IMG/VR virus record: IMGVR_UViG_3300046002_007411
Coordinates: 47,708 to 111,707 of that record
Reading direction: 5' to 3' (one strand)
Length of the DNA: 64,000 nucleotides
Source: a virus
Below the pieces are notes generated by a model. The model made no database searches. It was given only the letters and a program-made list of their open reading frames with translations, and was not told where the DNA came from. Shown here one piece after another: positions 2,981 through 63,907 of the stretch. Position 1 is the first letter of the stretch; each line of letters begins with the position of its first letter. The position numbers and the translations under genes are program-made.

Positions 2981-3664
2981 CTAGATCTTGTAAAATTCAG
3001 CCACACGCTGCCACCACAGCTGGCTGATATCGTCAAACTCTTGATCTTTTAGCACCCAACACTGGTGCTCTAGTTGTGGCGTGCACATGACAATCACACC
3101 TTGACGAATATCCGTGCCAAACATAGCATTGTGACAATGTGCATATGCTACCAGCTGTAGCTTGTAATCAAACACCCGCTCGTTGGTTTTGGGACGGTTG
3201 CTTTGTTTGAAGTCCACAATGCTGGGCTGGCCAGCCCAATTTCCGCAGCAGTCGGTTGTTCCTGCGTAAAGCTCGGGATAATATAAGTTGGCTTCCAACC
3301 CCCAAACTTCGTTTAGGTTGGGGCGAAGATAGTTTTCTATCAGGGTCTGTGCCATGTCCCAGCCCTGCTTGTGGTAGATGTTTGTGCCGGATTGTGGATT
3401 TAATCCCAGCAGTGTTTTTTCCAGATAGTTGTGCATGATAGTGCCGCGAGTAGCAGCCTCGGTGGTAATAGCTTGTGCTTTCTGAGCACCCATGCGTCGT
3501 TTCCAAGCAGCAAGTGCTTGTCTAGCTTCTAGAGGCTTGGTAGCCTCTAAAATAGTTGTCACACTGGCAAGTTTATTGCCGTCGGGAGTTAGATAACGAC
3601 GTTGACCTTGGTCATTTGTGCCACGTTCAAGTTTGCTGTAGGAATAGACAGGATTAAGTTGCAT
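2981..3664 (-). CDS. PD-(D/E)XK exonuclease (lambda-exo/MGME1-like)
   Basis: SVTTIL...RGTIMHNYLE...E..LYY..YAGTTD...IVDFKQS...QLVAY motifs. Confidence 0.85.
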   Translation of the reverse strand: MQLNPVYSYSKLERGTNDQGQRRYLTPDGNKLASVTTILEATKPLEARQALAAWKRRMGAQKAQAITTEAATRGTIMHNYLEKTLLGLNPQSGTNIYHKQGWDMAQTLIENYLRPNLNEVWGLEANLYYPELYAGTTDCCGNWAGQPSIVDFKQSNRPKTNERVFDYKLQLVAYAHCHNAMFGTDIRQGVIVMCTPQLEHQCWVLKDQEFDDISQLWWQRVAEFYKI

Positions 3665-3701: not shown

Positions 3702-4031
3702 TTAAATCTTGCGTGATTTTTTAGCCATTTTAGCTACATGATCTCGCGCTTTTTCTGATTCATCAGCACTGGTAATAGATTCCGGGGTGCCAACATCCAG
3801 ATACACATGATCAGGTGTCACTCTCTTGACAAAATCAGCACCTGTTAGAGCGTTCATGACCCATTCCGGGCTAACGTCGTAATCTTGCCCGTGCAGTTCT
3901 TTCATGTGTTTGAGAACCAAGTCCATGCTTACCTTGCTGGTTTTATTAGCAAGGTAAGGTATGAACATCTGTTTCAAACTTTGTGCGACTTCAGTTTCAA
4001 TGTCCTCGCACAAAATTTCACTAATACGCAC
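3702..4031 (-). CDS. Hypothetical protein, probable virion/head protein
   Basis: Likely start GTG 4031 immediately after the upstream stop, giving MRISEILCED. Confidence 0.7.
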   Translation of the reverse strand: MRISEILCEDIETEVAQSLKQMFIPYLANKTSKVSMDLVLKHMKELHGQDYDVSPEWVMNALTGADFVKRVTPDHVYLDVGTPESITSADESEKARDHVAKMAKKSRKI

Positions 4032-4032
4032 G

Positions 4033-7000
4033 TTACAGGGTGCCCTGTAACTTGGTGATCTTTTTATCAAAGTCTCTGGGACCAAACATTTGCAAAACTT
4101 TGATATCTTTTGCATTTAAATCACGCCAAAATTTGGCATTGGCACGGCTTTCAAAAAACTTCTGCTGTTGTTGACCTTGCTGGTCTTGATAAGCCAATCC
4201 CCATGGTGCTTGTTTTTTAGCTTGCACCAGTTTGCGGATTTGCAGCACAGTGGCAACTTGTTCTTGTAGCTTGTGAATGCCTTGATTGCGATAAGCTGCC
4301 AGCCAAGTTTCAACTTTACGTTGATGTTGTTGAGCTTGGGCAATTTTACCTGCAACAACTTCACCTTCTAAACCGTAACCTACATTCAGGGGATCAACTA
4401 CAATGCCTTCGCTAAGCTGTTGTTTCCATGTTTGGCGATGTTCTTGAAGAGTTTTTTGCAAGCTACCAATGTGCTTTTTGAGTGTTTCCAAACGAACTTG
4501 GTTGCGTGTATAGCTTTCTTCTTTTTTGCCAAACATTTTCCAAGCTGTTGCATACAAGACTTCTTCAGCACGATCACCGTATTGTTTGCGGAACTTTTCT
4601 TTGTTTTGGCGTATAAAACGTTCGGCTTTTTCACCAGGAGGCGCAACTTCTTGCAACTGAGCTTCTGGTAATCCTGATGTTTTACGACGTTGCAGTTCCT
4701 TATTTGCGTTTGCGTCGCCTTTAGCAGCTAGTTGTTGCAAACGCTGATCGCTTGCAATGTCGTAGGGATTGCTTACACCAGTTGCGCTGGGCTTCATATC
4801 CAGGCTAGGAGTAGGTTGCGGTCCACGACGTGCAAGTTCTTGACGTGCCTTGGAATCACTAGCAGCTTTTTGCTTTAAACGATCATAGTCCATTATTTCA
4901 TAAGGATTTGCTCCCATTAAACTATTTTCTTTTAGTTTACCGTATGCAAGTGTAGGTGCAGCAGCTTGTGCAGTCCCTGTCCGTGGAATGTGCCCACCTC
5001 TGGTCCTTTGTGATTTTTCCGCTCCGCGTGCACGTTTTGCAGAACCCTGCGTAACGTTCCCACCACGTGCCAAAAACTCACGTTCCATTCTTTCCTGTTC
5101 TTTACGTTCGTCGGGACTTAGGTCTTCTTTCATACCCATGCCGTCATCTTCAGGATCTTCGTCACTGCCCCAGTCATCGTCCCATGCTTCTGCCAAGTCA
5201 TTCTTTTTGCTGCGGCCTAGTGGTTCTTCAGCCCCCGGTGCTTCTGCAGGAGGTTCACCTAGTTCATCGCCATCAGGAGTTTCTTCGCCAGCTAATTCAA
5301 CATCAGGGGCTGGTGCTTCTGCTTGTTGACCGGGTATTCCACCTTGTTGTAGTGTTTCAATGCTAGTGTCAACTTGTTCTTTTGTTTCAGTTGTAGTGCT
5401 TAATAGTGATTCCAAACTGGCTTTTACAGTGTCATTGAAACCTTGTGCAGCTTCAGGGCCAAACTGTTCGCGCATGACGTCTACCAAGGGCATGAGATCT
5501 TCCACGCTCATCTTGGCAATCTTTTCAGCAGTTTGTTGAAGTTGATTGCTTAAATCTTTAGCTGCCAACAGTGTTTCTGCTTGAGCTAGGTCTTGCTGTT
5601 CCATGACCTTTGCACGGCGCAGGCGTTGCTCGGCAAGGTGGCGGCTTTTGCCAGCGCGGGCATCACTGAAGTGATCATCTAGGGCGTGCATTTCAAATTG
5701 CTTGTAGTCTAAATAATGCTTGGCGCTGCTAATGCATTCGCTTGCTGTGGTAAGCTTCATGGCCACCCAGCCTTCGAGATGATCTCCTGGCTTGATCATT
5801 TCAAACAACTTGGTGCTGTATTCCACAATCATCATGAGATTTTGGCGAGTAATACTTCCTGATGTTTCGCCAAGTTCCATGTCACCATCAAGGTCTTCAG
5901 GAAGTTGTTCAGGCTCAAAAGTCTTGTAATAGTCAAGGTAGTGATAAATTTTGTCAAGGTAGTTGGCTGACTTGGTCAATGCACCAGCTATCCAAGGCTC
6001 AATTTCTTCGTTAACTTGTATTTGATTCATCATGCTCATGGCATACTTGGCATTGCGATAAAGTTCGCTGCGGGTCATGCTAGCTTGATATTCATAATGC
6101 TTGACATCAGTATGTGGGTCACGTTCAACGTCTACGTCAAACTCCAAACTGTCATGCATTTCTCCCAGCACATTTTCATCAACTTTTGCAAGTTCATCAC
6201 GTGTGTCGCCAGTTACTTGGAAAGTCTTGCCAGCAACTGTGAAGTGTTTTTTACCTGATTTGATAGCGTCAAGGCGTGCTTTTACAAACTCATTGCCTTC
6301 CGGTGTAACTTCACGACGACTGTGAATCATATCGGTTTCTTTTACTGACTTTTTAGCCTTTTTGTCCATGGGCTGCTCTTTCTCTTTTTCAATTTCTTTT
6401 TCCACTTCCCAGTCGCCGCGACGTATTTCGGGATCACCGCGTAGCTCTTCACGCTGTGCTAGCAAAGCTGGGCCATAAAGCTCAACCCCTTTGTTGACTA
6501 TACGTGTTTTGACTTTGTCAGTTACGTCATCTAACATGCCTGCTTGCTCCGCATGCCGCATGAGCTTGACAATATCACGCTCAAGTGTTGTCAGTTGGGT
6601 TGCTTGCTCTTTGGCAAAAGCTGTGCCCACATGCTGTAGTTTATCTGCTATAGTTTGCAGCGCAACAATGAACAAATCGCGTTGTTCTTGCTGTTGCTTT
6701 TCTTCATTGCTGAGCTTGCCAGTTTTACTGGGAGGAACAACATACATGGCAAACTGCTCAAGTTTGCGGGCAAATGCCAAACGTTGCTGTTCCTTGCTGA
6801 CAGGAGCATCTAGGGATTCTTTTACAGTGGTTTTCTTCTTGCGTCCAGGACTTACTTCACGAAGAGTAATAGACAACGCTTCCAAAATCAGCATGTTTTT
6901 AATGTATTCGGGATTGCTGAGATAGCTGTTGAAGCTGCTGTTTTCAATCACAGTATCCCGGGCCTGCTGTGTTTCCGAGATCATAGCATGTATTTTGCTC

Positions 7001-34946: not shown

Positions 34947-35531
34947 TTATGCACCAGCAAGGGCTTCAGTTACTGCGGAGGTTAGAACAGTGTCTTGTGT
35001 GGCATTGTCATAACGCAGGCTCAGTGTTATTTGCATGGGTTCACTGCTGCTGTAATCAAAAGTATCATAAGTGACGTTTTGCAAGTAACAACCTTCAAGA
35101 TACCAAGCTTCCAACACACCAACGTTACCACCATCAAGTGTTTCAATCTTGGTTCTAAACTTGAACTGACTGGCAGTTGTAGCACTCGTTTGTGCAAAAA
35201 AGTTATGTTGTCTTTGTAGTTGGGCGCTGACCAAACGGCTAACAGCACTGGTAATATCATCTTGTATGGTTATTTCCACGTTTTGCCAAGTGGGTTTTTG
35301 AGGCACATACATAATGTTGTTGTAGCTGTGAATAGCTGTTTCACCAAACTGCACTTGTGGTCGCCCTGCGCTTTTAACTTGACGAGTTAGGTCTAAAGTT
35401 GGTCCCAAACCAGCAAAACGATCCATTGTAACACGGAAACGATACTTTAGCTTGGGCATGAGCATGCCAATACCATTAGTGCCAGGCACTAGGGGTACAC
35501 CAAATCTGCTCAATGTGGGGGTGAATACCAT
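34947..35531 (-). CDS. gp19: Tail tube protein (gp19-like)
   Basis: PKLKYRFRV...RPQV...WQNVEITIQDD...WYLEGC...LSLRYDNA; GGAGG RBS. Confidence 0.88.
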   Translation of the reverse strand: MVFTPTLSRFGVPLVPGTNGIGMLMPKLKYRFRVTMDRFAGLGPTLDLTRQVKSAGRPQVQFGETAIHSYNNIMYVPQKPTWQNVEITIQDDITSAVSRLVSAQLQRQHNFFAQTSATTASQFKFRTKIETLDGGNVGVLEAWYLEGCYLQNVTYDTFDYSSSEPMQITLSLRYDNATQDTVLTSAVTEALAGA

Positions 35532-47148: not shown

Positions 47149-49929
47149 TTACTGACCTGCTTTCATTGTGACTTCTTGGAAGATAGAACGACTTTCATCA
47201 CGTTGTGGTTTGTGGCTAACACCCATGCCCTTGCGAGTTATGTCCATGAGATACTTGATCCAATCTTGCCCCAGAGCGGTTTCATCAAAACCTTGACTCC
47301 ACACATTATATTGTTGTTTGTCACTTGCTTGAGGATCTTTAAGGATGTTTCTCAGTTTGGTAAAACTCATGCCAGTTGTTCGCGGCGTGGGATTAAGAGA
47401 GACTTTGACATGTTCATAGCCAGGAAACTTATTCACAGATTTCATTATAGCTTGTGCCAATGGCATGTCTTTCTGATCTTCACCAACCATTATAACAACG
47501 TTATCATAGCGAGGAGCTTGTCCCCGACGTGGATTGACCAACTCATGCTTGATCTTTTGCATAAGTGATCCTCCTTGTTGAACAGCACTGATATTCGAGG
47601 CATATTCAGGATCTAGCTTGTGCCAAGTTTGTGTTTTAACAGAGGGTGGTATGGGATCATCAACTCCCACAGCATTGCCTATGAACAAATAAGGATCGGC
47701 TTGGAGTTTTTGTGCTTGTTCTTTTGTAAGCCTCCACAGCTCTTGATGACCTTTGTGTCCCACAAAACTTCCAATAGCTACTACAGCAGTTTTTGCCTTG
47801 CCTTTCACAGCAGGTGGGGCCTTGGCAGCCATGGCTTGTTTCATTTGAGGTGATGTTACTTTAAACACTTGTCCACTGGGCATGTTGACAATAATGCCTT
47901 CCATGGTATTGCCAAGAACATTTTTACCTCTTAGTTTGGGACTGGTCAAAATTGTTTGACTGAGCTTTTCTCTAGCAGCATCAAGTTTGTCTTTGTTTGC
48001 AACACGATTTTTGGGATCAAGGTCCGCAACCGGCTCAACTATTTTCTCGACATCCAATCCAGAATGTTCCAGTTGGTTGTTGATTATTTTTACATCACTT
48101 GTGCTGGCGTCCGTCAACTGCTTTTTGATTTCTGCGGATTGCTGTTCAGGTAGTTCAGTGCCTGTGCTGAACTTTTTAAAAGCAAATGGCACCAAGGTCA
48201 TAACCTTACCAAGTTCCTTGGGATCGTAACTGATATTAACAAACTTTAAACCATCCTCAGTTTGCTGGGCCATGGGCCTATATAACATTTCCGCTTGAAC
48301 CAATGTGTTAACTGGAACTTTCTTGATAAAGTCACTGCCAGTAATGATTTTCAAAACTTGATCGTAGTTGCGTGCTCGAGCTTGTTGTTCTTGATTTTGA
48401 CCTTGTTCTTTTGCATATTTAGAGAAAAATCCTTGGTCCTCGGCATATATTGGTCGATCCACCCTGCTAGTCATAAAAAATGGTTGGCCTTTTTGATCTC
48501 TACCAAAACGTATGCCAGCCCCGTCAACTTTCAAGTTAATAGGCACATCATCCAAGTTGCCACCAAGTTGAGCTATTTCCTGACAAAGTTTAATAAAATC
48601 TGCGTCCTTCATCTCCATGCTGCTGGCACGGCCGTCAGGCAGTCTACTGTAAATGTGTTGAACACCTTTTCTAGCAAAACTAGGTGTATCTTGAGCTTCT
48701 TGTATTATGCCTTTTTCTTTTTGTCTGCTACGAAACTTGCTTTCGTAATCTATTGCCATGTTTACAGCTTGCTGACGCAGTTGAGTTGAATTTGGCACTT
48801 TAAGTGGTTTGTGGTCTTTGGTTCCCAAAAGCATGATGTCAATAGCAGCGAACTTGGTATCGCGGTCACGTTGCGGATCGTCTTTTGTGATCATTTGTGC
48901 CCCAGCACCAAACAAAATATCATAAAACGCTTCGACTACAGCACGGTTTTGTTCGGGTTTTAGATACTTGTTCATAAGTTGAATTGTGCCAACAAAACTA
49001 CCTTGCAGTTTTCTATCAGCTTCCGTGCGTTTACGTCCAAACATCAGTTCAAACTGCTGATCAAGGTTTTGCACATAATGTCTATCTGCTGTTTCAATAT
49101 ATTGCATTATGGGAATATTCTTTTTGGTGGCAGGCTCACCTGTTTGAGGATCAAGGTAAGGACGGTATTTCAAACTAAGGCCACCACCTTGAGCACTGGT
49201 CACAGCAAAACTATAGTTGCTGTCTTGAACAGGCTCATCACTTATTTTAACGCCACGTTTTTGAACTTTTGCAACATACTTTTTGGTTTGATGTGCTTGC
49301 ACTAGGGCGCGATTTATATACTTGTGGAATACACCTTTAATGCCTACTTCCATGTCGTCATAATGGCTGCTGTGACTGTAAGCAAACCATTCAGTGGGCT
49401 TTTTAGTTTTGGTATCATAAGGACCCAGCTCGTAGTCCACTTGCACACGCACAACAGGATCATCTAGCAACCAAATACTGCTTAAGGAACTGTTGAATCC
49501 CAAAAGCACACCGTTTCCAACTTTTTGCCCTATGATACTTTCCAACCAAGTGGCTAATTCCTCACCAAGATTTTGATCAACTTGGGTATCAATATCACCA
49601 ACTTTGGTTTTTTTCAGTTTGTTTAGGAAATCTTCAGTGTTAATTTTTTTGATATTGAAAAAATGCACACTGCTTCCACTAAACATGTCTCCACTTGTCA
49701 GCAAACTGGGTGCCCAAATATACTTGCCTGTGGCTTCGCGAAAGCTTTTATTTTGAGCAGCAAACAACTTTCTCAGTTGTTTGACCATGAAATCTCTATT
49801 ATGCAGTTTGAGATCAATTTCTTGCGCGGCTTGATCTTGCGCACCTTTCCAACCAGGACTTTTGCTGCTTACATTGCCGCCTTCCATCAAATAAGGCAGT
49901 GGACTATATAAAATTTCAGATATGAGCAT
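47149..49929 (-). CDS. Multidomain protein: Pol-beta-like nucleotidyltransferase + ATP-dependent ligase-like domain + HIGH-type (cytidylyltransferase-like) domain
   Basis: FSGS...GDIDTQV...VQVD; LKVDG...AE...EGIIV...FKV; GSFVGHKGH...VGEDQ...MSFTKLR. Confidence 0.75.
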   Translation of the reverse strand: MLISEILYSPLPYLMEGGNVSSKSPGWKGAQDQAAQEIDLKLHNRDFMVKQLRKLFAAQNKSFREATGKYIWAPSLLTSGDMFSGSSVHFFNIKKINTEDFLNKLKKTKVGDIDTQVDQNLGEELATWLESIIGQKVGNGVLLGFNSSLSSIWLLDDPVVRVQVDYELGPYDTKTKKPTEWFAYSHSSHYDDMEVGIKGVFHKYINRALVQAHQTKKYVAKVQKRGVKISDEPVQDSNYSFAVTSAQGGGLSLKYRPYLDPQTGEPATKKNIPIMQYIETADRHYVQNLDQQFELMFGRKRTEADRKLQGSFVGTIQLMNKYLKPEQNRAVVEAFYDILFGAGAQMITKDDPQRDRDTKFAAIDIMLLGTKDHKPLKVPNSTQLRQQAVNMAIDYESKFRSRQKEKGIIQEAQDTPSFARKGVQHIYSRLPDGRASSMEMKDADFIKLCQEIAQLGGNLDDVPINLKVDGAGIRFGRDQKGQPFFMTSRVDRPIYAEDQGFFSKYAKEQGQNQEQQARARNYDQVLKIITGSDFIKKVPVNTLVQAEMLYRPMAQQTEDGLKFVNISYDPKELGKVMTLVPFAFKKFSTGTELPEQQSAEIKKQLTDASTSDVKIINNQLEHSGLDVEKIVEPVADLDPKNRVANKDKLDAAREKLSQTILTSPKLRGKNVLGNTMEGIIVNMPSGQVFKVTSPQMKQAMAAKAPPAVKGKAKTAVVAIGSFVGHKGHQELWRLTKEQAQKLQADPYLFIGNAVGVDDPIPPSVKTQTWHKLDPEYASNISAVQQGGSLMQKIKHELVNPRRGQAPRYDNVVIMVGEDQKDMPLAQAIMKSVNKFPGYEHVKVSLNPTPRTTGMSFTKLRNILKDPQASDKQQYNVWSQGFDETALGQDWIKYLMDITRKGMGVSHKPQRDESRSIFQEVTMKAGQ

Positions 49930-58367: not shown

Positions 58368-60116
58368 TTATACTCCCGGGGCTTCTGGTGCAGCGGCTGG
58401 TGCAGCTTCTGGAGCAGCAGGTGCAGCAACTTCAGGAGGAGCTTCTCCACCTGGTTCGCCAGGCAAACCAGGCTCTTCAAATCCTGACACATCACGAATA
58501 CCCACACTAGCTAAATCCACATTATTTTCATCACTTGGTGCTTTACCAGTCTTTGCTTTTACTTTATCAGCGTTTTCTTCCTGGAATCTGCGTTCATTTT
58601 CAATAACATCTTCCTCTGTCCAACCAAGATAACGCATTAGTGCATATCGCTTGCTGATGTAACGATTTGCATCACTGCCCATGATGCTGGTAAACAAGTT
58701 GATTTGTTCGCTTTCTTTTTGTATGCGACGATAATCACTAAAGCTTTGAGGTTCCCAAAACTGCAAATCAAACAAGCTGCTGGAGATTTCTATGCCACGA
58801 TGCTTGAGAAATAGTTTAAACTCTCTATCTAAAACTGGAGCAACTAGATTTTGCAAACGCTGACAGTATTTGGTAAAACGATATTCTTGAACAAAGGCTG
58901 ATCCTATTTTGCCATCACTGAATACAGTGGTGCCATCCTCGGGCCCTGTGGGCAAATAACTGCTGGGAATACCCAAGCCGCGAATCATTTTGTTGTTGAA
59001 GTATTTCAAGTCATCAATCTGTCCGAGATTTTCACCACCAGGCAAAGTTTCAATACGGGATCCTTTGCCTTCAGAGTTTTGTGCAAGGAAAAAGTCCTCA
59101 TTTATGGCAATAGGGCTATAAGCCGCATCCAAAATACTTTGTCCTCCACCTGTTCTGTTGGGGATTCGGCGTTGATAGATTTCGTTTTTAATACGCTCGA
59201 CATATTGCATGGCACGTGGACCACTGAGATTGCCCACATCAATATAAAAAATTCTACGTTCTGGTGCCCGCACTATGCGATAAATGATAATGCTATCTTC
59301 CAGCAGGTCTTTTTGCTTGTAAACCTTGTAAATGCTTTCCAATATGCTGGTGCCAAAGGGCCATTGACTGTCCATGCCCTCACTTAAACTCAAATGCACA
59401 ACATGGGTGCCATCAATAGCATAGTTGTTGTCGGGTAAGTTGAAACGTGAGTTTCTACTTCCCGGACTACTAGCAACACCGTAGTTCACAGTGCCTGCAC
59501 CAGCAGCAGGATTACTGCTACGTGGATACCCTCCAGGAAAGCTATACTGGTCATGAACCAGCATGCTGGTGGCAACCATGCTTTGCAGATTTAAATCAAT
59601 ATCACGAATAACATATTGCTCAATGTCTTTGCCACGATTTTCATTTACTATGATCTTTTCAACTTTTGTGGGATCAACCCAAATAAGCTCAAAAGTTTCA
59701 GGATCACGTATGTAAATCTGATCGCCATATTTGATGACATTTCTAAATGCCCGCCAAAGGCGCTGCTGCCATTTGTTCAAGCTGCACCACTGCCGTAAAG
59801 TGTCCTTCAACAACGTGATTTCTGTATCTGTTAGCTCGTCATGATACACTATGTCAAAAGGATCAGTGTCATTTTCAAAATTCTGTGTGCTGAAATCGCT
59901 TATAACATCAAGAGCTTTGCTGATTTCACTATCTAAATCCATTTGTTCATATTGAATATAACGCTCAACTCTATTAGGAGCCCCGCTATAAACCTCGGGC
60001 AAAAAACTACTGTATTTGCCGCTGGTTCCTCCTTGCCCACTGGTAGAGTTACCCACTTCACGAGTTGTTCTTGCAGGGCTAGGCACGGCGCTAAAGTATT
60101 TTTTCCAAGAAGACAT
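58368..60116 (-). CDS. gp20: Portal protein (gp20-like)
   Basis: LLEDSIIIYRIVRAPERRIFYIDVGN; EDFFL; ETLPGGENLGQIDD. Confidence 0.96.
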   Translation of the reverse strand: MSSWKKYFSAVPSPARTTREVGNSTSGQGGTSGKYSSFLPEVYSGAPNRVERYIQYEQMDLDSEISKALDVISDFSTQNFENDTDPFDIVYHDELTDTEITLLKDTLRQWCSLNKWQQRLWRAFRNVIKYGDQIYIRDPETFELIWVDPTKVEKIIVNENRGKDIEQYVIRDIDLNLQSMVATSMLVHDQYSFPGGYPRSSNPAAGAGTVNYGVASSPGSRNSRFNLPDNNYAIDGTHVVHLSLSEGMDSQWPFGTSILESIYKVYKQKDLLEDSIIIYRIVRAPERRIFYIDVGNLSGPRAMQYVERIKNEIYQRRIPNRTGGGQSILDAAYSPIAINEDFFLAQNSEGKGSRIETLPGGENLGQIDDLKYFNNKMIRGLGIPSSYLPTGPEDGTTVFSDGKIGSAFVQEYRFTKYCQRLQNLVAPVLDREFKLFLKHRGIEISSSLFDLQFWEPQSFSDYRRIQKESEQINLFTSIMGSDANRYISKRYALMRYLGWTEEDVIENERRFQEENADKVKAKTGKAPSDENNVDLASVGIRDVSGFEEPGLPGEPGGEAPPEVAAPAAPEAAPAAAPEAPGV

Positions 60117-60171: not shown

Positions 60172-62661
60172 TTAAGATGCAGATAATCCTGCTCCTTGCA
60201 CTGGTCGATCAGTTACTAAAGTTGCCAAGCTTGTATTCATGGAACTCAATAGGTCTTTCATGTTTTCATTAAGTTCACGTATGTTTTTCCAAATATTCAA
60301 AGTATCAGCTTGCCAATCAGTATTCATACCTTGATACTCAGGTGCAGATGCAGGAGTTTCTGCTCGACCACTCACTGCACCTAATACTCTAGAAAGATTA
60401 TCAAAGCCTCCAGCACCAGGAGTCAAGCTAATAGCACTTATAACTTCACGGTAACCTGCGCTGAAATCTTTTAGGGCTTGACCAGTTTCACTGTATTGCA
60501 AGTTTAAACCTTGACGATCTTCTAACATTTTGTCAATCTGTTCAAGTAACGACATTTGCCCTGCAGCTTGCTCGGGACTGCGTTGTGCGTCTGCACCACC
60601 GCCGCCAAATAAAGTTCCGCTGTGTTGATATAGGCCCATGCCTGCGCCAGCTAGACCGCCTAATGCTCCGCCTACTAATGCCCCACCTGGACCTAAAAAT
60701 GCACCCAACATGGCGCCAGTGCCAGCTAATCCTGCAGCTTGTCCAAGAATATCAAGTCCCGCACCAGTTTTACCATAGCCTGCTCCAGTAGCAGCAGTAC
60801 CTAAACCTCCCAAGGCTGCTCCTGCTACTAATCCGCCAATACTTCCTCGACCTAACATACTTCCCAACCTGCCAAATCTACCGCCACCTGCTTGGCCTGG
60901 TCGGCCAGGTGCGCCGCCCCCTAAACCACCGCCACCTAAACCACCTGCGCTTACTTCGCGGGTATATATGGGATTTTGAGGTGTAGAACCTGGAATACCA
61001 GGGCCTATACCGCTAGCGCCTATACCTGGCGCACCTTTTGGTCCACCAAACATTGATACAATGCTTCTAAAACCTTTCACTGCTAAAACTGAAGCACCTA
61101 TAGCTGCTCCAAAAGCAATAACAGACCCTAATATTCCACCTTGTCCGCCTAGTCCAACAGCACTTGTTATAGCTTTATCAATGTCATTAAATTTTTCTGA
61201 TAACCATGTAATCCCGTCTGCTAGATAACCCAAAGGTGTAATTAAATAGTTTGCAGCACTTGCAAAGCTTCTAAATATTTCATTATTAAGTTTGTTGAAT
61301 GCCTCCGTAAGCTTGTTTAATACTTCTTTACGTTTTTTATCCTCTTCAGCTTCTTTTGCACGCTCAGCTTTAAGTTCATTAAGAGTCATACCACGACGTT
61401 TAGCTTCGGCTTCCATCTGCTCTAGCTTGTCTTTTTCTGCTTGTTCAACATTTTTAGCATTTTTGATTAAATCACCAAGAGTTCCTGCTAGTTCAGGCAT
61501 GGCAGCTAGCAGCTGGCGGCGCAGTGACTCAGGTGCAGCGATTAGTGTTTTTGCAAATTGTTTTTGTGCATCTTCATACTCTTCCCCACCTTTAACACTT
61601 GCTTCTGCTAGATTGGCAAAACTACCTCCAAGCCCTGGCACTGTGCTAATCAAGTGCTGCATGCTTTCATCAAGCAGGCCAAAGGTGTTTGAACCGGCAA
61701 AATATTTTTGTATGTTATCTGCTAGTAGCTTACCACCTTGTTGACCAAACTTAGCCAACTGAGCAGTAGCAGCAATTAAGTTTTCTCCTGCTTTTGCACT
61801 CATTGTGCTCAATAACAAATAGCTGCTACCAGTTTTTGTTATACTACTAACAAAGTCTATTAACGCTTTTCTACTCAGTCCTGTGGCTTCACTTACTTTA
61901 CCAAACTGGTTAATAAGCCCTTGGCTGCTGGCTACAAGTTGTTGGTTGTTTAGGCGGCCGGCTACACCAGCTTGCTGATAGATGTCCACAGTTTGCAAGA
62001 ACATTTCTGCGCCATCCTGCAAGCTTAGGAGATATTCACCACCATATCGGCTGGTATCTTGAAATGTTTTAATTAACTTGGGAACATCACGCCCCCCTAA
62101 CTGTGCAAATACAGTGCTGTTTTTTGTAGCTAATGCACCAAACTCCTGTACGCTTAACCTAGCTGTGTTACTGCTTGTGATCAGTCCATTGATACCGCCT
62201 TGAAGTCTAACACCAGTTTCATATAAATCACTAAAGATTTTATCAGCTTCTATGAGCTTTTCCAAGCTTTTACTTACTAAGAGTGCAACTGTTGCAAATC
62301 TCTGCAAACCACTTATTGCCAGCTTGTTTGCTTTACCTTGTTCCTCAAAGTCTTGGGCTAGTAATTTTGTACTCTGACTTATATTAGTAAAGAGCCCTTG
62401 TCCCCCTTGTATGCCTTCCGTTAAAGCTGATTTCCAAACTTGTCCAGCTTGTTGAAGATAATACCGGGTTTTTTCTGAGTTATCTTTTAACTGTTGACTG
62501 TTCTCTTCTAAAGCTTGTCTGGCGACCTCCCCTTCCTTGCTTGGGGTTTTAGGATCTAATGCTGTTAGGAGTTTTTTAAGAGTGGTTTCTGTTGCCCAGC
62601 CAACATTTCCTTGACTAGCCATCGCAACAAATAATGGATTGTTAGCATTTGTTCCAGACAT
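60172..62661 (-). CDS. Tape-measure-like protein
   Basis: 829 aa; helical/coiled-coil with Gly/Ala-rich hydrophobic segments; next to the gp26-like gene. Confidence 0.65.
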   Translation of the reverse strand: MSGTNANNPLFVAMASQGNVGWATETTLKKLLTALDPKTPSKEGEVARQALEENSQQLKDNSEKTRYYLQQAGQVWKSALTEGIQGGQGLFTNISQSTKLLAQDFEEQGKANKLAISGLQRFATVALLVSKSLEKLIEADKIFSDLYETGVRLQGGINGLITSSNTARLSVQEFGALATKNSTVFAQLGGRDVPKLIKTFQDTSRYGGEYLLSLQDGAEMFLQTVDIYQQAGVAGRLNNQQLVASSQGLINQFGKVSEATGLSRKALIDFVSSITKTGSSYLLLSTMSAKAGENLIAATAQLAKFGQQGGKLLADNIQKYFAGSNTFGLLDESMQHLISTVPGLGGSFANLAEASVKGGEEYEDAQKQFAKTLIAAPESLRRQLLAAMPELAGTLGDLIKNAKNVEQAEKDKLEQMEAEAKRRGMTLNELKAERAKEAEEDKKRKEVLNKLTEAFNKLNNEIFRSFASAANYLITPLGYLADGITWLSEKFNDIDKAITSAVGLGGQGGILGSVIAFGAAIGASVLAVKGFRSIVSMFGGPKGAPGIGASGIGPGIPGSTPQNPIYTREVSAGGLGGGGLGGGAPGRPGQAGGGRFGRLGSMLGRGSIGGLVAGAALGGLGTAATGAGYGKTGAGLDILGQAAGLAGTGAMLGAFLGPGGALVGGALGGLAGAGMGLYQHSGTLFGGGGADAQRSPEQAAGQMSLLEQIDKMLEDRQGLNLQYSETGQALKDFSAGYREVISAISLTPGAGGFDNLSRVLGAVSGRAETPASAPEYQGMNTDWQADTLNIWKNIRELNENMKDLLSSMNTSLATLVTDRPVQGAGLSAS

Positions 62662-62711
62662 TTTTTATCACTTCACGGAATTAACACAATAAATATTTCT
62701 AATATTTATGG

Positions 62712-63575
62712 ATGTATTTCTCCACAATGAACCCACTTGAACCTTACTTTCGCAAACCGCAAGTTTATATTTCCTTACCCAGCCAAGGTCGTTGGTATAA
62801 ACCACAAGATATTACTTTAACAGGAGACAATGAACTTGCCATTTATGGCATGACAGCAAGAGATGATGTGCTTTTAAACACACCTGATGCTATGTTAAAT
62901 GGCGAAGCTCTTAAAAAGGTTATTGCCAACTGTGTGCCAGATGTTCACAACATCAATGCGCTGGTAACACCAGATCTTGAAGCTATATTTGTGGCCATGA
63001 AACTAGCCAGCGGTGATGGAACTATAGAAATCAATCGCGATTGTCCCAAATGTGGACACGATTGCAGTTGGGATCTACAATGCCAACCTATTCTTGACAG
63101 ACAAACTCTTATTGAACATCAAGACGGTGTTGTAGTAGTTGATCAATCATTGGAAATCCATGTTAAACCCTATGATTACAAACAGCGCAGCATATTCATC
63201 CAACAAGAATATCAAGAAGAGCGTGCTATAAGACAATGGGATACCTTGAATCCTGACAGTAGTGACTTATTAAAAGCTGAAGTCATGGCACAGGCTATTG
63301 ATAACATCAGCCAAATTACTATAAAATTGGTCAGTGCAAGTATCACACATGTGAAAATACTACACTCAGGCGAAGTAGTCTCCGACCCAGATTTTATTAT
63401 TGAATGGCTGCGATCAGCACCGCGAGCGCAAGCTGAAGCTATAATCTCCGCAGTGGACCAATTAAACAAATGCGGTCCAAATAAAAACATTGATGTTGAA
63501 TGCCCCAGCTGTGCTAATACCTGGCAAGTAACTATAAGTTATGACCCTATAAGTTTTTTCGTCAAACGCTCCTAA
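62712..63575 (+). CDS. Baseplate hub / tail assembly protein (gp26-like)
   Basis: YISLPSQG, MTARDD..L.TPDA..NG, two CxxC motifs, ends ISFF. Confidence 0.75.
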   Translation: MYFSTMNPLEPYFRKPQVYISLPSQGRWYKPQDITLTGDNELAIYGMTARDDVLLNTPDAMLNGEALKKVIANCVPDVHNINALVTPDLEAIFVAMKLASGDGTIEINRDCPKCGHDCSWDLQCQPILDRQTLIEHQDGVVVVDQSLEIHVKPYDYKQRSIFIQQEYQEERAIRQWDTLNPDSSDLLKAEVMAQAIDNISQITIKLVSASITHVKILHSGEVVSDPDFIIEWLRSAPRAQAEAIISAVDQLNKCGPNKNIDVECPSCANTWQVTISYDPISFFVKRS

Positions 63576-63577
63576 GC

Positions 63578-63793
63578 TTGGATCAAGAAACGATCCAAAC
63601 CATGCTTGGGAGCATGAATAAAAACGTCATTGCTGTGGAAAAAGACATTGCTAGCTTGGTATATTACATGAACGGTGGATTGAGCTATAACGATGCTTGG
63701 TTGTTAACTTCCAATCAAAGAAAAATAATGGTGAAAGTCATTGAGGATCATTACAAAGCCATGAATCCCTCTAAAGGCCAACAAGCTTTTTAA
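63578..63793 (+). CDS. gp51-like small protein, probably made as a -1 frameshift extension of the upstream gene
   Basis: YYMNGGLSYNDAWLLT..QR; reading frame is open from the slippery site at 63554. Confidence 0.65.
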   Translation: MDQETIQTMLGSMNKNVIAVEKDIASLVYYMNGGLSYNDAWLLTSNQRKIMVKVIEDHYKAMNPSKGQQAF

Positions 63794-63870
63794 GTTGTCG
63801 GTGATTCATTTAGTATTTCTTGATGATTTAGTTATTCAGGATTTAAGTGGTTGTGATAAACACAACCACT

Positions 63871-63907
63871 GAATAACAACTAGCTGAAGCAAGTTGTTAT
63901 TCTTTTT
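63871..63907 (+). terminator. Rho-independent terminator within a multi-hairpin region
   Basis: gaataacaact-N10-agttgttattc followed by ttttt. Confidence 0.6.

Follow-up and report, generated by a model that had tools for sequence, protein, structure and literature searches.

What is the relation between a phage gene of the gp26/gp51 type and a short reading frame that continues beyond its stop, one register back and with no reliable start of its own? This question is raised near the end of a 64,000-nucleotide stretch of viral DNA (IMG/VR record IMGVR_UViG_3300046002_007411, positions 47,708 to 111,707; hereafter the window), where an open reading frame (ORF) related to the baseplate hub genes 26 and 51 of phage T4, here ORF1, is followed by a small frame, here ORF2. 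An earlier note on this DNA had proposed that the two are joined by a programmed -1 frameshift and make up a tail assembly chaperone of the lambda G/GT type. A conserved frameshift in tail-chaperone genes reportedly goes back to Xu, Hendrix and Duda in 2004. Passages of a 2016 review describe lambda gpG/gpGT and P2 gpE/gpE+E' as tail assembly chaperones made through such a conserved programmed frameshift, and state that the G-T frameshift is conserved among long-tailed phages "except T4" (PMC5009743). Our analysis favours the reading that ORF1 and the downstream frame are one gene with two products, the longer made by a -1 frameshift on TTTTTTC; judged from sequence comparison, its probability is about 80%. 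This reading is directly supported by the anatomy of the site, the conservation of the heptamer at silent positions, coding in the -1 frame from the shift site onward, natural in-frame fusions and homology of the extension across clades.

Results

On the plus strand, the 0-frame end of ORF1 reads TAT GAC CCT ATA AGT TTT TTC GTC AAA CGC TCC TAA, in which the heptamer T_TTT_TTC stands in X_XXY_YYZ phase four sense codons before the stop (Table 1), as the earlier note had described. The -1 frame is closed by a TGA at 63542-63544 and then stays open from 63545 to 63793, straight through ORF2 and for 72 codons beyond the 0-frame stop; the +1 frame closes after 15. Following a tandem -1 slip the protein would read ...SFF and then RQTLLSLDQ..., exactly the junction proposed before, and the predicted long form would comprise 355 aa from the start at 62727 or 360 aa from ATG 62712. 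Contigs from four lake-water metagenome runs, among which the window's own source may be, cross positions 63300-63900 without an indel, so the -1 offset is not an assembly indel.

The site suggests the following course of events. Most ribosomes would read ORF1 to its TAA and release a short form of ~282 aa. A minority would pause at the predicted downstream hairpin with tRNA-Phe on UUU in the P site and on UUC in the A site; both tRNAs would then slip back by one base on U_UUU_UUC, and reading would resume at CGU. The slip would add 77 residues (RQTLL...) and give a long form of ~355 aa, and a small conserved C-terminal domain would be carried by the long form only. Both the P-site UUU and the A-site UUC allow renewed pairing one base back. 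Cognate A-site re-pairing is given as the rule for efficient bacterial -1 motifs in a section of PMC4066793, and the change from UUC to UUU fits it.

We read the junction by script in 44 sources, namely the window and the loci L001-L043, which include 40 fetched IMG/VR relatives. Forty-one are full-length members of the clade; L041 is cut off by the end of its contig, and L042 and L043 are members of a second clade with a +1 arrangement. The in-phase heptamer is T_TTT_TTC in 40 of the 41 members and T_TTT_TTT in the remaining one, and in all 41, which hold 31 distinct junction sequences, the -1 frame is open for 58-75 codons beyond the stop. Nine more loci agree (L127, L128, RaK2, GAP32, CBB, XaC1, Vibrio phage 2.275.O, Phosso and Ecwhy_1), and the junction was also read individually in PHA46, PA5oct and Atu_ph07. 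Altogether, in-phase T_TTT_TTY is kept in 49/49 full-length relatives examined, ten of them cultured jumbo phages such as RaK2, PA5oct and Atu_ph07, down to ~27-30% protein identity. The heptamer and its register, whose conservation the earlier note had left to be checked, are thus retained throughout.

The conservation extends to positions that are silent in the protein. In 39 loci counted, the codon before the Phe pair always ends in T, against 32% T at third positions elsewhere in these genes, and this codon is AGT, AAT, CTT, CAT, CGT or TAT, six codons for six residues (S, N, L, H, R and Y). The first Phe codon is TTT in 39/39 loci (70% elsewhere), and the second is TTC in 38/39 (30% elsewhere). 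T4 gp26 (208 aa), whose gene is directly followed by gene 25, ends in KEFFELL* and writes its FF as TTC TTT, a non-slippery sequence; therefore the amino acids do not force the heptamer. These counts bear on the alternative that the two frames are separate genes, with ORF2 starting from TTG 63578 or from ATG 63602 or 63614, perhaps by termination-reinitiation, and the heptamer being the footprint of a Ser-Phe-Phe motif. FF is indeed a conserved protein motif, present in T4 gp26 as well, and in ORF1 residues S281, F282 and F283 are invariant across 20 homologues, the aromatic pair closing the domain. A protein footprint, however, leaves unexplained why the residue before FF varies while its codon always ends in T, why the Phe codons are fixed as TTT TTC rather than mixed at 70/30, and why T4 spells the same motif differently.

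The -1 frame appears to code from the shift site itself. The position of the 0-frame stop varies from +3 to +13 codons past the heptamer and so, between lineages, does the sequence of the 0-frame tail, whereas the -1 peptide, FF-R-x-T-L-x-x-x-D-P-x-L-I-x-x-M-L-x-x-M, aligns without gaps from the first residue after the shift. Of the 31 distinct junctions, 19 lack ATG, GTG and TTG throughout the first 16 codons of the -1 frame, and in these conserved -1 residues precede the first possible start; in PA5oct none of the three occurs within the first 30. Independent initiation, the competing outcome named in the earlier note, cannot account for a conserved -1 peptide upstream of any start codon. 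As to separate genes, the TTG lies only 2 nt after the stop, ATG is found at -1 codons 16 and 20 in most relatives, and gene callers list a small ORF, with many calls of 60-75 aa. The same holds for 8/10 of the clade's GenBank records (PA5oct and RaK2 omit the second frame), but the annotated start varies from record to record. None of the 16 GenBank records examined annotates a joined coding sequence. The lack of a clear ribosome-binding site for ORF2, put forward earlier, is true by anti-Shine-Dalgarno (anti-SD) energies, which are +1.2, -0.7 and -2.0 kcal/mol for the starts at 63578, 63602 and 63614. Candidate starts elsewhere in the clade, where present, mostly score weakly as well. Neither result counts for much, because of the window's 40 large ORFs 14 likewise exceed -2.1 kcal/mol and look SD-less, a fact compatible with ORF2 being a gene of its own. 

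Natural fusions offer a further line of evidence. The -1 extension, including ORF2, has no match in Pfam, PHROGs or NCBIfam, and tblastn with ORF2 returned only the region just downstream of the gp26-like gene of Atu_ph07 (E 2e-3). A profile of 27 extensions (A4) was then searched against 1.84 billion representative proteins at E <= 1e-3 and gave 243 matches, mostly ORF calls of 50-100 aa with differing starts. Ten of the 243 are natural fusions with a length of 319-351 aa; their gp26-like body passes in frame into the extension through a junction of the form ..F-R-x-K/R-L/I.., so that they encode the junction whose peptide the earlier note had proposed to look for (metagenomic proteins P0150, P0155, P0182, P0195, P0209, P0212, P0218, P0219, P0226 and P0274). 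P0252, which is cut at its N-terminus, also reads ...DPASFF-RRKLL... in frame, with a homopolymer error possible at that point. No fused form was found in IMG/VR or in phage records, cultured phages included. With in-frame fusions in existence, a constant codon pattern at the site and conserved residues ahead of any start, we regard two separate genes as very improbable. Apart from these fusions, five long proteins, P0147 (1574 aa), P0149 (1115 aa), P0162 (659 aa), P0196 (561 aa) and P0249 (777 aa), each gave 5-9 separate matches to the central part of the extension profile, which may reflect a family of repeat proteins or else an artefact of composition.

Downstream of the heptamer, the window RNA is predicted to fold into a hairpin with a 10-bp lower stem, a 7-bp upper stem, a 5-nt bulge and a 7-nt loop. 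Its minimum free energy is -26.7 kcal/mol (z -5.59); 0/200 dinucleotide shuffles fold as well, and it exceeds 24/24 control windows of the same gene in stability. In a set of 37 loci, the downstream 60 nt exceed same-gene controls in stability by a mean of 5.8 kcal/mol, and 20/37 loci beat at least 95% of their controls (Wilcoxon p 5.6e-6, a value that overstates independence because the loci are related). A downstream stimulator is thus likely in the window phage, and such folding is likely common in the clade, though not as a single conserved element; the stem registers differ between lineages.

Several observations weigh against one frameshifted gene. The heptamer by itself is no more frequent than chance, with 25 copies of TTTTTTC in the window versus 28.6 +/- 5.2 in shuffles; what exceeds chance is its in-phase conservation across every relative. 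In 17/37 loci the downstream RNA has no unusual stability. When the window hairpin was imposed on 28 relatives, 56.6% of the cells were paired versus 54.2% in shuffles, and its covariation score was reached by 10/500 shuffles; one stimulatory structure conserved across the clade, barely better than shuffles in these relatives, was dropped as a candidate. Moreover, ORF2 possesses the three possible starts of its own given above, and some independent initiation in the window may occur beside the shift.

A second clade reaches a homologous extension by the opposite shift. L042 and L043 (25-27% identity) end in ...N-F-F-W-P-D..., written AAC TTT TTT TGG CC, and their +1 frame encodes FFGLTxEYR..LFxQIHEIVFHGNGGYDW..., which resembles the extension. 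Scanning with four proteins of this clade yielded 596 IMG/VR relatives, of which 80 were kept, and 84 loci were examined. A junction with the extension in the +1 frame was found in 80/84, with 78 distinct sequences, and none was found in the other 4. Among the distinct junctions, 74/78 read TTT TTT TGG CC preceded by NNC, and 4/78 read TTT CTT TGG CC. Here the A-site codon is UGG and not a stop, the -1 frame closes after 4 codons in 78/80, and in 60/80 the first 20 codons of the +1 frame include no start codon. By hhalign, the extension of this clade is homologous to that of the -1 clade (probability 95.8%, E 6.5e-9). Outside this clade, in Bacillus phages HSE3 and SP-15 and Streptococcus phage GXN1, a small ORF is open in +1 across the FF codons (TTC TTT CGT or TTT TTT CAC), and a visual reading of the Xoo-sp13 DNA gives T_TTT_TTT continued in the -1 frame.

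The two clades together bear on whether the slip might occur during transcription, RNA polymerase adding one U in the T6 run to leave a fraction of the mRNAs fused in frame. The site is homopolymeric and the protein outcome would be identical; in the +1 clade, with its T7 run, loss of one U would likewise give the +1 product. Yet the run is capped by C in 38/39 loci of the -1 clade and not lengthened, the stable hairpin begins 7 nt downstream, a typical distance for ribosomal -1 shifting, and the four +1-clade junctions with TTT CTT TGG make the same frame change with no long run. To our knowledge, the runs known for productive transcriptional slippage are all longer than T6. Slippage by the polymerase is hence a slim prospect, and the shift is probably ribosomal.

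ORF1 itself belongs to Pfam family PF12322 (T4_baseplate; E 5.3e-16, 59.4 bits against a cut-off of 24.5), its residues 51-283 matching profile positions 34-218 of 219, and to phrog_150, "baseplate hub", in PHROGs (E 5.8e-18). PF12322 also matches T4 gp26 and T4 gp51. The closest cultured relatives that tblastn gives for ORF1 are jumbo phages, RaK2-like and others, with 95 records at ~28-31% identity; an Atlas search gave no usable match. One homologue, P0005, bears the precomputed Pfam label PF26788, given here as a label only. The predicted short and long forms would share this gp26/gp51-type body with its two CxxC pairs. Its start is more likely ATG 62727 than ATG 62712, because most homologues begin at MNPL, equivalent to 62727, and the anti-SD duplex there scores -4.0 kcal/mol versus +2.0 at 62712.

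The gene order of relatives points to a role as a chaperone. In lambda, P2 and their kin, the G/GT pair is located between the tube and tape-measure genes, as stated in part of the same review (PMC5009743). Flavobacterium phage immuto has the order sheath, tube, "baseplate hub subunit", unannotated frame and "tail tape measure protein"; this order recurs in Microcystis phage Mel-JY01, and the gene of L042 and L043 also lies between tube and tape measure. In HSE3 and SP-15 the order is sheath, tube, "baseplate hub", small ORF and tape measure. Table 2 of PMC3004832 counts T4 gp26 and gp51 as chaperones of hub assembly, and the part of the text concerned gives gp51 as absent from the particle. 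The G/GT-style role proposed earlier thus gains support from the synteny of immuto, Mel-JY01, HSE3 and SP-15 and from the T4 listing. Taken with the logic of two isoforms and with T4 genetics, these data suggest by analogy with lambda gpG/gpGT that the two forms would serve hub, tape measure and tube as a fixed-ratio chaperone pair.

The window itself fits this role less well. Its gene does not occupy the tube-to-tape-measure slot; it lies 27 kb from the tube gene and is divergent from the candidate tape-measure gene. The earlier statement that the pair adjoins the tape-measure gene is right in that this neighbour is adjacent, but the neighbour is encoded on the other strand, and its candidacy as a tape-measure gene comes from position only. 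It encodes 829 aa and has the portal gene on one side and the gp26-like gene on the other, as in RaK2, PA5oct, PHA46 and CBB. Its RaK2 counterpart, ORF088, is annotated as similar to a tape-measure protein, and the CBB counterpart is abundant in virions. The 829-aa protein has no match in phage records and no similarity to the immuto tape-measure protein, T4 gp29 or PA5oct gp335, and its sole NCBIfam match is a sub-threshold SMC coiled-coil; because there is no sequence match, we infer a tape-measure protein here from position. Furthermore, searches of Pfam, PHROGs and NCBIfam placed ORF1 in no tail-chaperone family, and its product has roughly double the size of lambda gpG and carries zinc-ribbon-like CxxC pairs.

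The same features would suit a real frameshift whose long form is a structural or regulatory variant of the baseplate hub, and not a chaperone of tape measure or tube. CBB_250 (L131, 698-1555) is labelled "structural protein" in GenBank, and genetic work cited in a portion of PMC3004832 places gp26 in the hub. Against such a variant, five other lineages (immuto, Mel-JY01, HSE3, SP-15 and L042/L043) have the gene in the tube-to-tape-measure slot. Among the rows seen of the CBB virion mass spectrometry (MS) table, CBB_251 has 29 peptides, CBB_247 is present and CBB_250 does not appear (PMC5259590); in PA5oct, gp335 carries an MS note and gp336 none. The solved structures searched include no relative. 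We therefore hold a hub variant to be unlikely, though a serious competitor of the chaperone role. In the accompanying part of the text of PMC5259590, the name "CBB_250" seems to mean the gp5-like CBB_240.

How the two frames relate to T4 was approached from gp51 (249 aa), in which PF12322 covers residues 1-201. T4 gp26 and gp51 resemble ORF1 in belonging to the same Pfam family and in having FF or VF at the end of the common domain, which in gp51 reads ..DVFKLL with V199-F200. Beyond this point gp51 continues K-LL-VN-PDEI..., which resembles FF-R-x-x-LL-x-x-x-PEEI of the jumbo phages. T4 differs from the window in having two genes and no slippery site. Profiles of a single clade are not significant against gp51 (E 0.24 for the whole protein, 0.058 and 0.043 for the tail), and 25/250 and 19/250 column shuffles did as well against the tail, which counts against the correspondence. 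Single-clade and pooled profiles nevertheless agree in register. The pooled profile comprises 78 extensions from the -1 clade, the +1 clade, cultured jumbo phages, natural fusions and Gram-positive phages; it matches the gp51 tail with a score of 22.7 (E 5e-4), reached by 0/120 column shuffles (highest 16.0), over 29 columns only (extension columns 41-69 versus gp51 residues 222-249). Comparison of the extension or of ORF1 with the single gp51 sequence by hhalign was uninformative, full-length natural fusions aligned with the gp51 family in the central domain only (E 1e-4), and profile A7 matched full gp51 in a different region (E 0.037).

With fair support, then, ORF2 would correspond to the gp51-specific tail, the extra C-terminal part of gp51 aligning with the core of the frameshift-encoded extension, and T4 would obtain the same pair from two paralogous genes, 26 for the short form and 51 for the long. 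The earlier name "gp51-like" for ORF2 stands for the C-terminal tail of gp51, as the pooled profile indicates, and not otherwise; it is ORF1 itself that belongs to the gp26 and gp51 family. The tail of gp51 homologues bears the precomputed label PF28602, of a newer Pfam family, cited as a label. T4 (L044, 5803-6090, minus strand) also has an annotated gp26', made from an internal start and sharing its C-terminus with gp26, a third way for this family to give two forms.

Discussion

In two genes of Escherichia coli a shift of frame is also built into expression. In dnaX a heptamer and a downstream hairpin yield gamma and tau, two products of one gene, and prfB is read through a +1 slip on CUU_U that depends on an in-frame stop. 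The window gene resembles dnaX in its heptamer and hairpin, but in dnaX the shift truncates the product and here it would extend it. The TTT CTT TGG variants of the +1 clade recall prfB, except that the A-site codon is UGG and no in-frame stop is involved.

The closer comparison is with lambda G/GT and P2 E/E+E'. As in those pairs, two products would begin with a common N-terminal part, the second frame lacks a dependable start codon, the stop is preceded at a few codons' distance by a slippery heptamer, and the frame change is kept despite low identity. The relatives' gene lies between tube and tape measure, and the direction of the shift varies, being -1 in the window clade and +1 in the second clade. 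Unlike the lambda and P2 pairs, the gene belongs to PF12322, encodes ~280 aa with two CxxC pairs and has a short extension (77 aa), and in the window it is neither near the tube gene nor on the strand of the tape-measure candidate, from which it diverges.

A search of the literature, with subscription papers and supplements outside its reach, turned up no account of frameshifting in genes of the gp26/gp51 type. A conserved tail-chaperone frameshift in this family, thought to lack one, would appear to be new. On balance we lean slightly towards a broader proposal, in which PF12322 would be the missing G/GT-type chaperone of T4-type and many other contractile-tailed phages, expressed by -1 shifting on U_UUU_UUC in the RaK2-like clade and the window phage, by +1 shifting on YUU_UGG in a very large aquatic clade and probably by +1 shifting in Bacillus and Streptococcus phages, and encoded as genes 26 and 51 in T4. 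If this is true, the "except T4" exception to the tail-chaperone frameshift would be removed, and gp26 and gp51, essential "catalysts" of hub assembly in T4, would receive a concrete job after 50 years, the frameshift linking them to the logic of the chaperone pair. Long-tailed phages need a frameshifted chaperone, with its two forms in a set ratio, for the length of the tail and the assembly of the hub, and the prediction is that the gp26/gp51 family acts as such a short/long pair. The -1, +1, fused and duplicated arrangements would then form a natural series of answers to one problem of stoichiometry. Exact junctions are available for MS in PA5oct, RaK2, CBB, Atu_ph07, immuto and SP-15.

Other features of the locus

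The features of the locus and the loci of the related clades are collected in Table 1. The AATAAATA box upstream of ORF1 presumably resembles the T4 late promoter, and the 50-bp gap between ORF1 and the divergent 829-aa gene would need to contain both promoters.

Table 1. Coordinates of the two-frame gene, its neighbours and related loci (window positions, except in the last two rows, where positions follow each locus named)
Feature	Position	Strand	Basis or remark
ORF1, short form	62712..63575	+	282 aa if started at ATG 62727 (more likely), 287 aa if at ATG 62712
Slippery heptamer T_TTT_TTC	63554..63560	+	X_XXY_YYZ phase, four sense codons then stop
Spacer from heptamer to stem, 7 nt	63561..63567	+	Derived from the fold
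Predicted stimulatory stem-loop	63568..63613	+	Folding; 0-frame stop inside
TAA stop of the short form	63573..63575	+	Reading frame
-1 extension of the predicted long form	63560..63793	+	77 codons then TAA; starts with CGT, re-reading C63560
ORF2, mechanical ORF call ("gp51-like" in the earlier note)	63578..63793	+	TTG start, 71 aa, offset -1 relative to ORF1
Terminator-like hairpin, 10-bp A/T-rich stem (63872-63901) then T-run	63872..63907	+	By eye; may close the two-frame unit
AATAAATA box upstream of ORF1	62688..62695	+	Read in sequence; possible T4-type late promoter
Divergent 829-aa neighbour, candidate tape-measure protein	60172..62661	-	Position
Portal protein	58368..60116	-	phrog_213, E 1.7e-106
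Tube gene	34947..35531		27 kb from ORF1
+1-clade loci	L042 3137-3425; L043 3395-3662; L045 (immuto) 3967-4216; L046 (Mel-JY01) 3973-4198; L047-L126		
Gram-positive loci	L136 (HSE3) ~3192-3416; L137 (SP-15) ~3105-3428; L139 (GXN1) ~3132-3500		

Besides the terminator-like hairpin, a second hairpin lies 3' of ORF2 at 63847-63869. A terminator scan reported neither of the two, in the case of the hairpin at 63872 because it has fewer than 3 G-C pairs. A search for tRNA genes at the end of the window found none, an Rfam search gave two sub-threshold small RNA matches only, and a search of the locus against phage records at the DNA level gave no match. All 20 runs matching positions 63100-63900 are labelled as lake-water metagenomes, and no RNA run is among them. 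The contigs from the four runs mentioned above differ from the window at positions 63754, 63770, 63776 and 63799, and the IMG/VR copy L004 agrees with the contigs.

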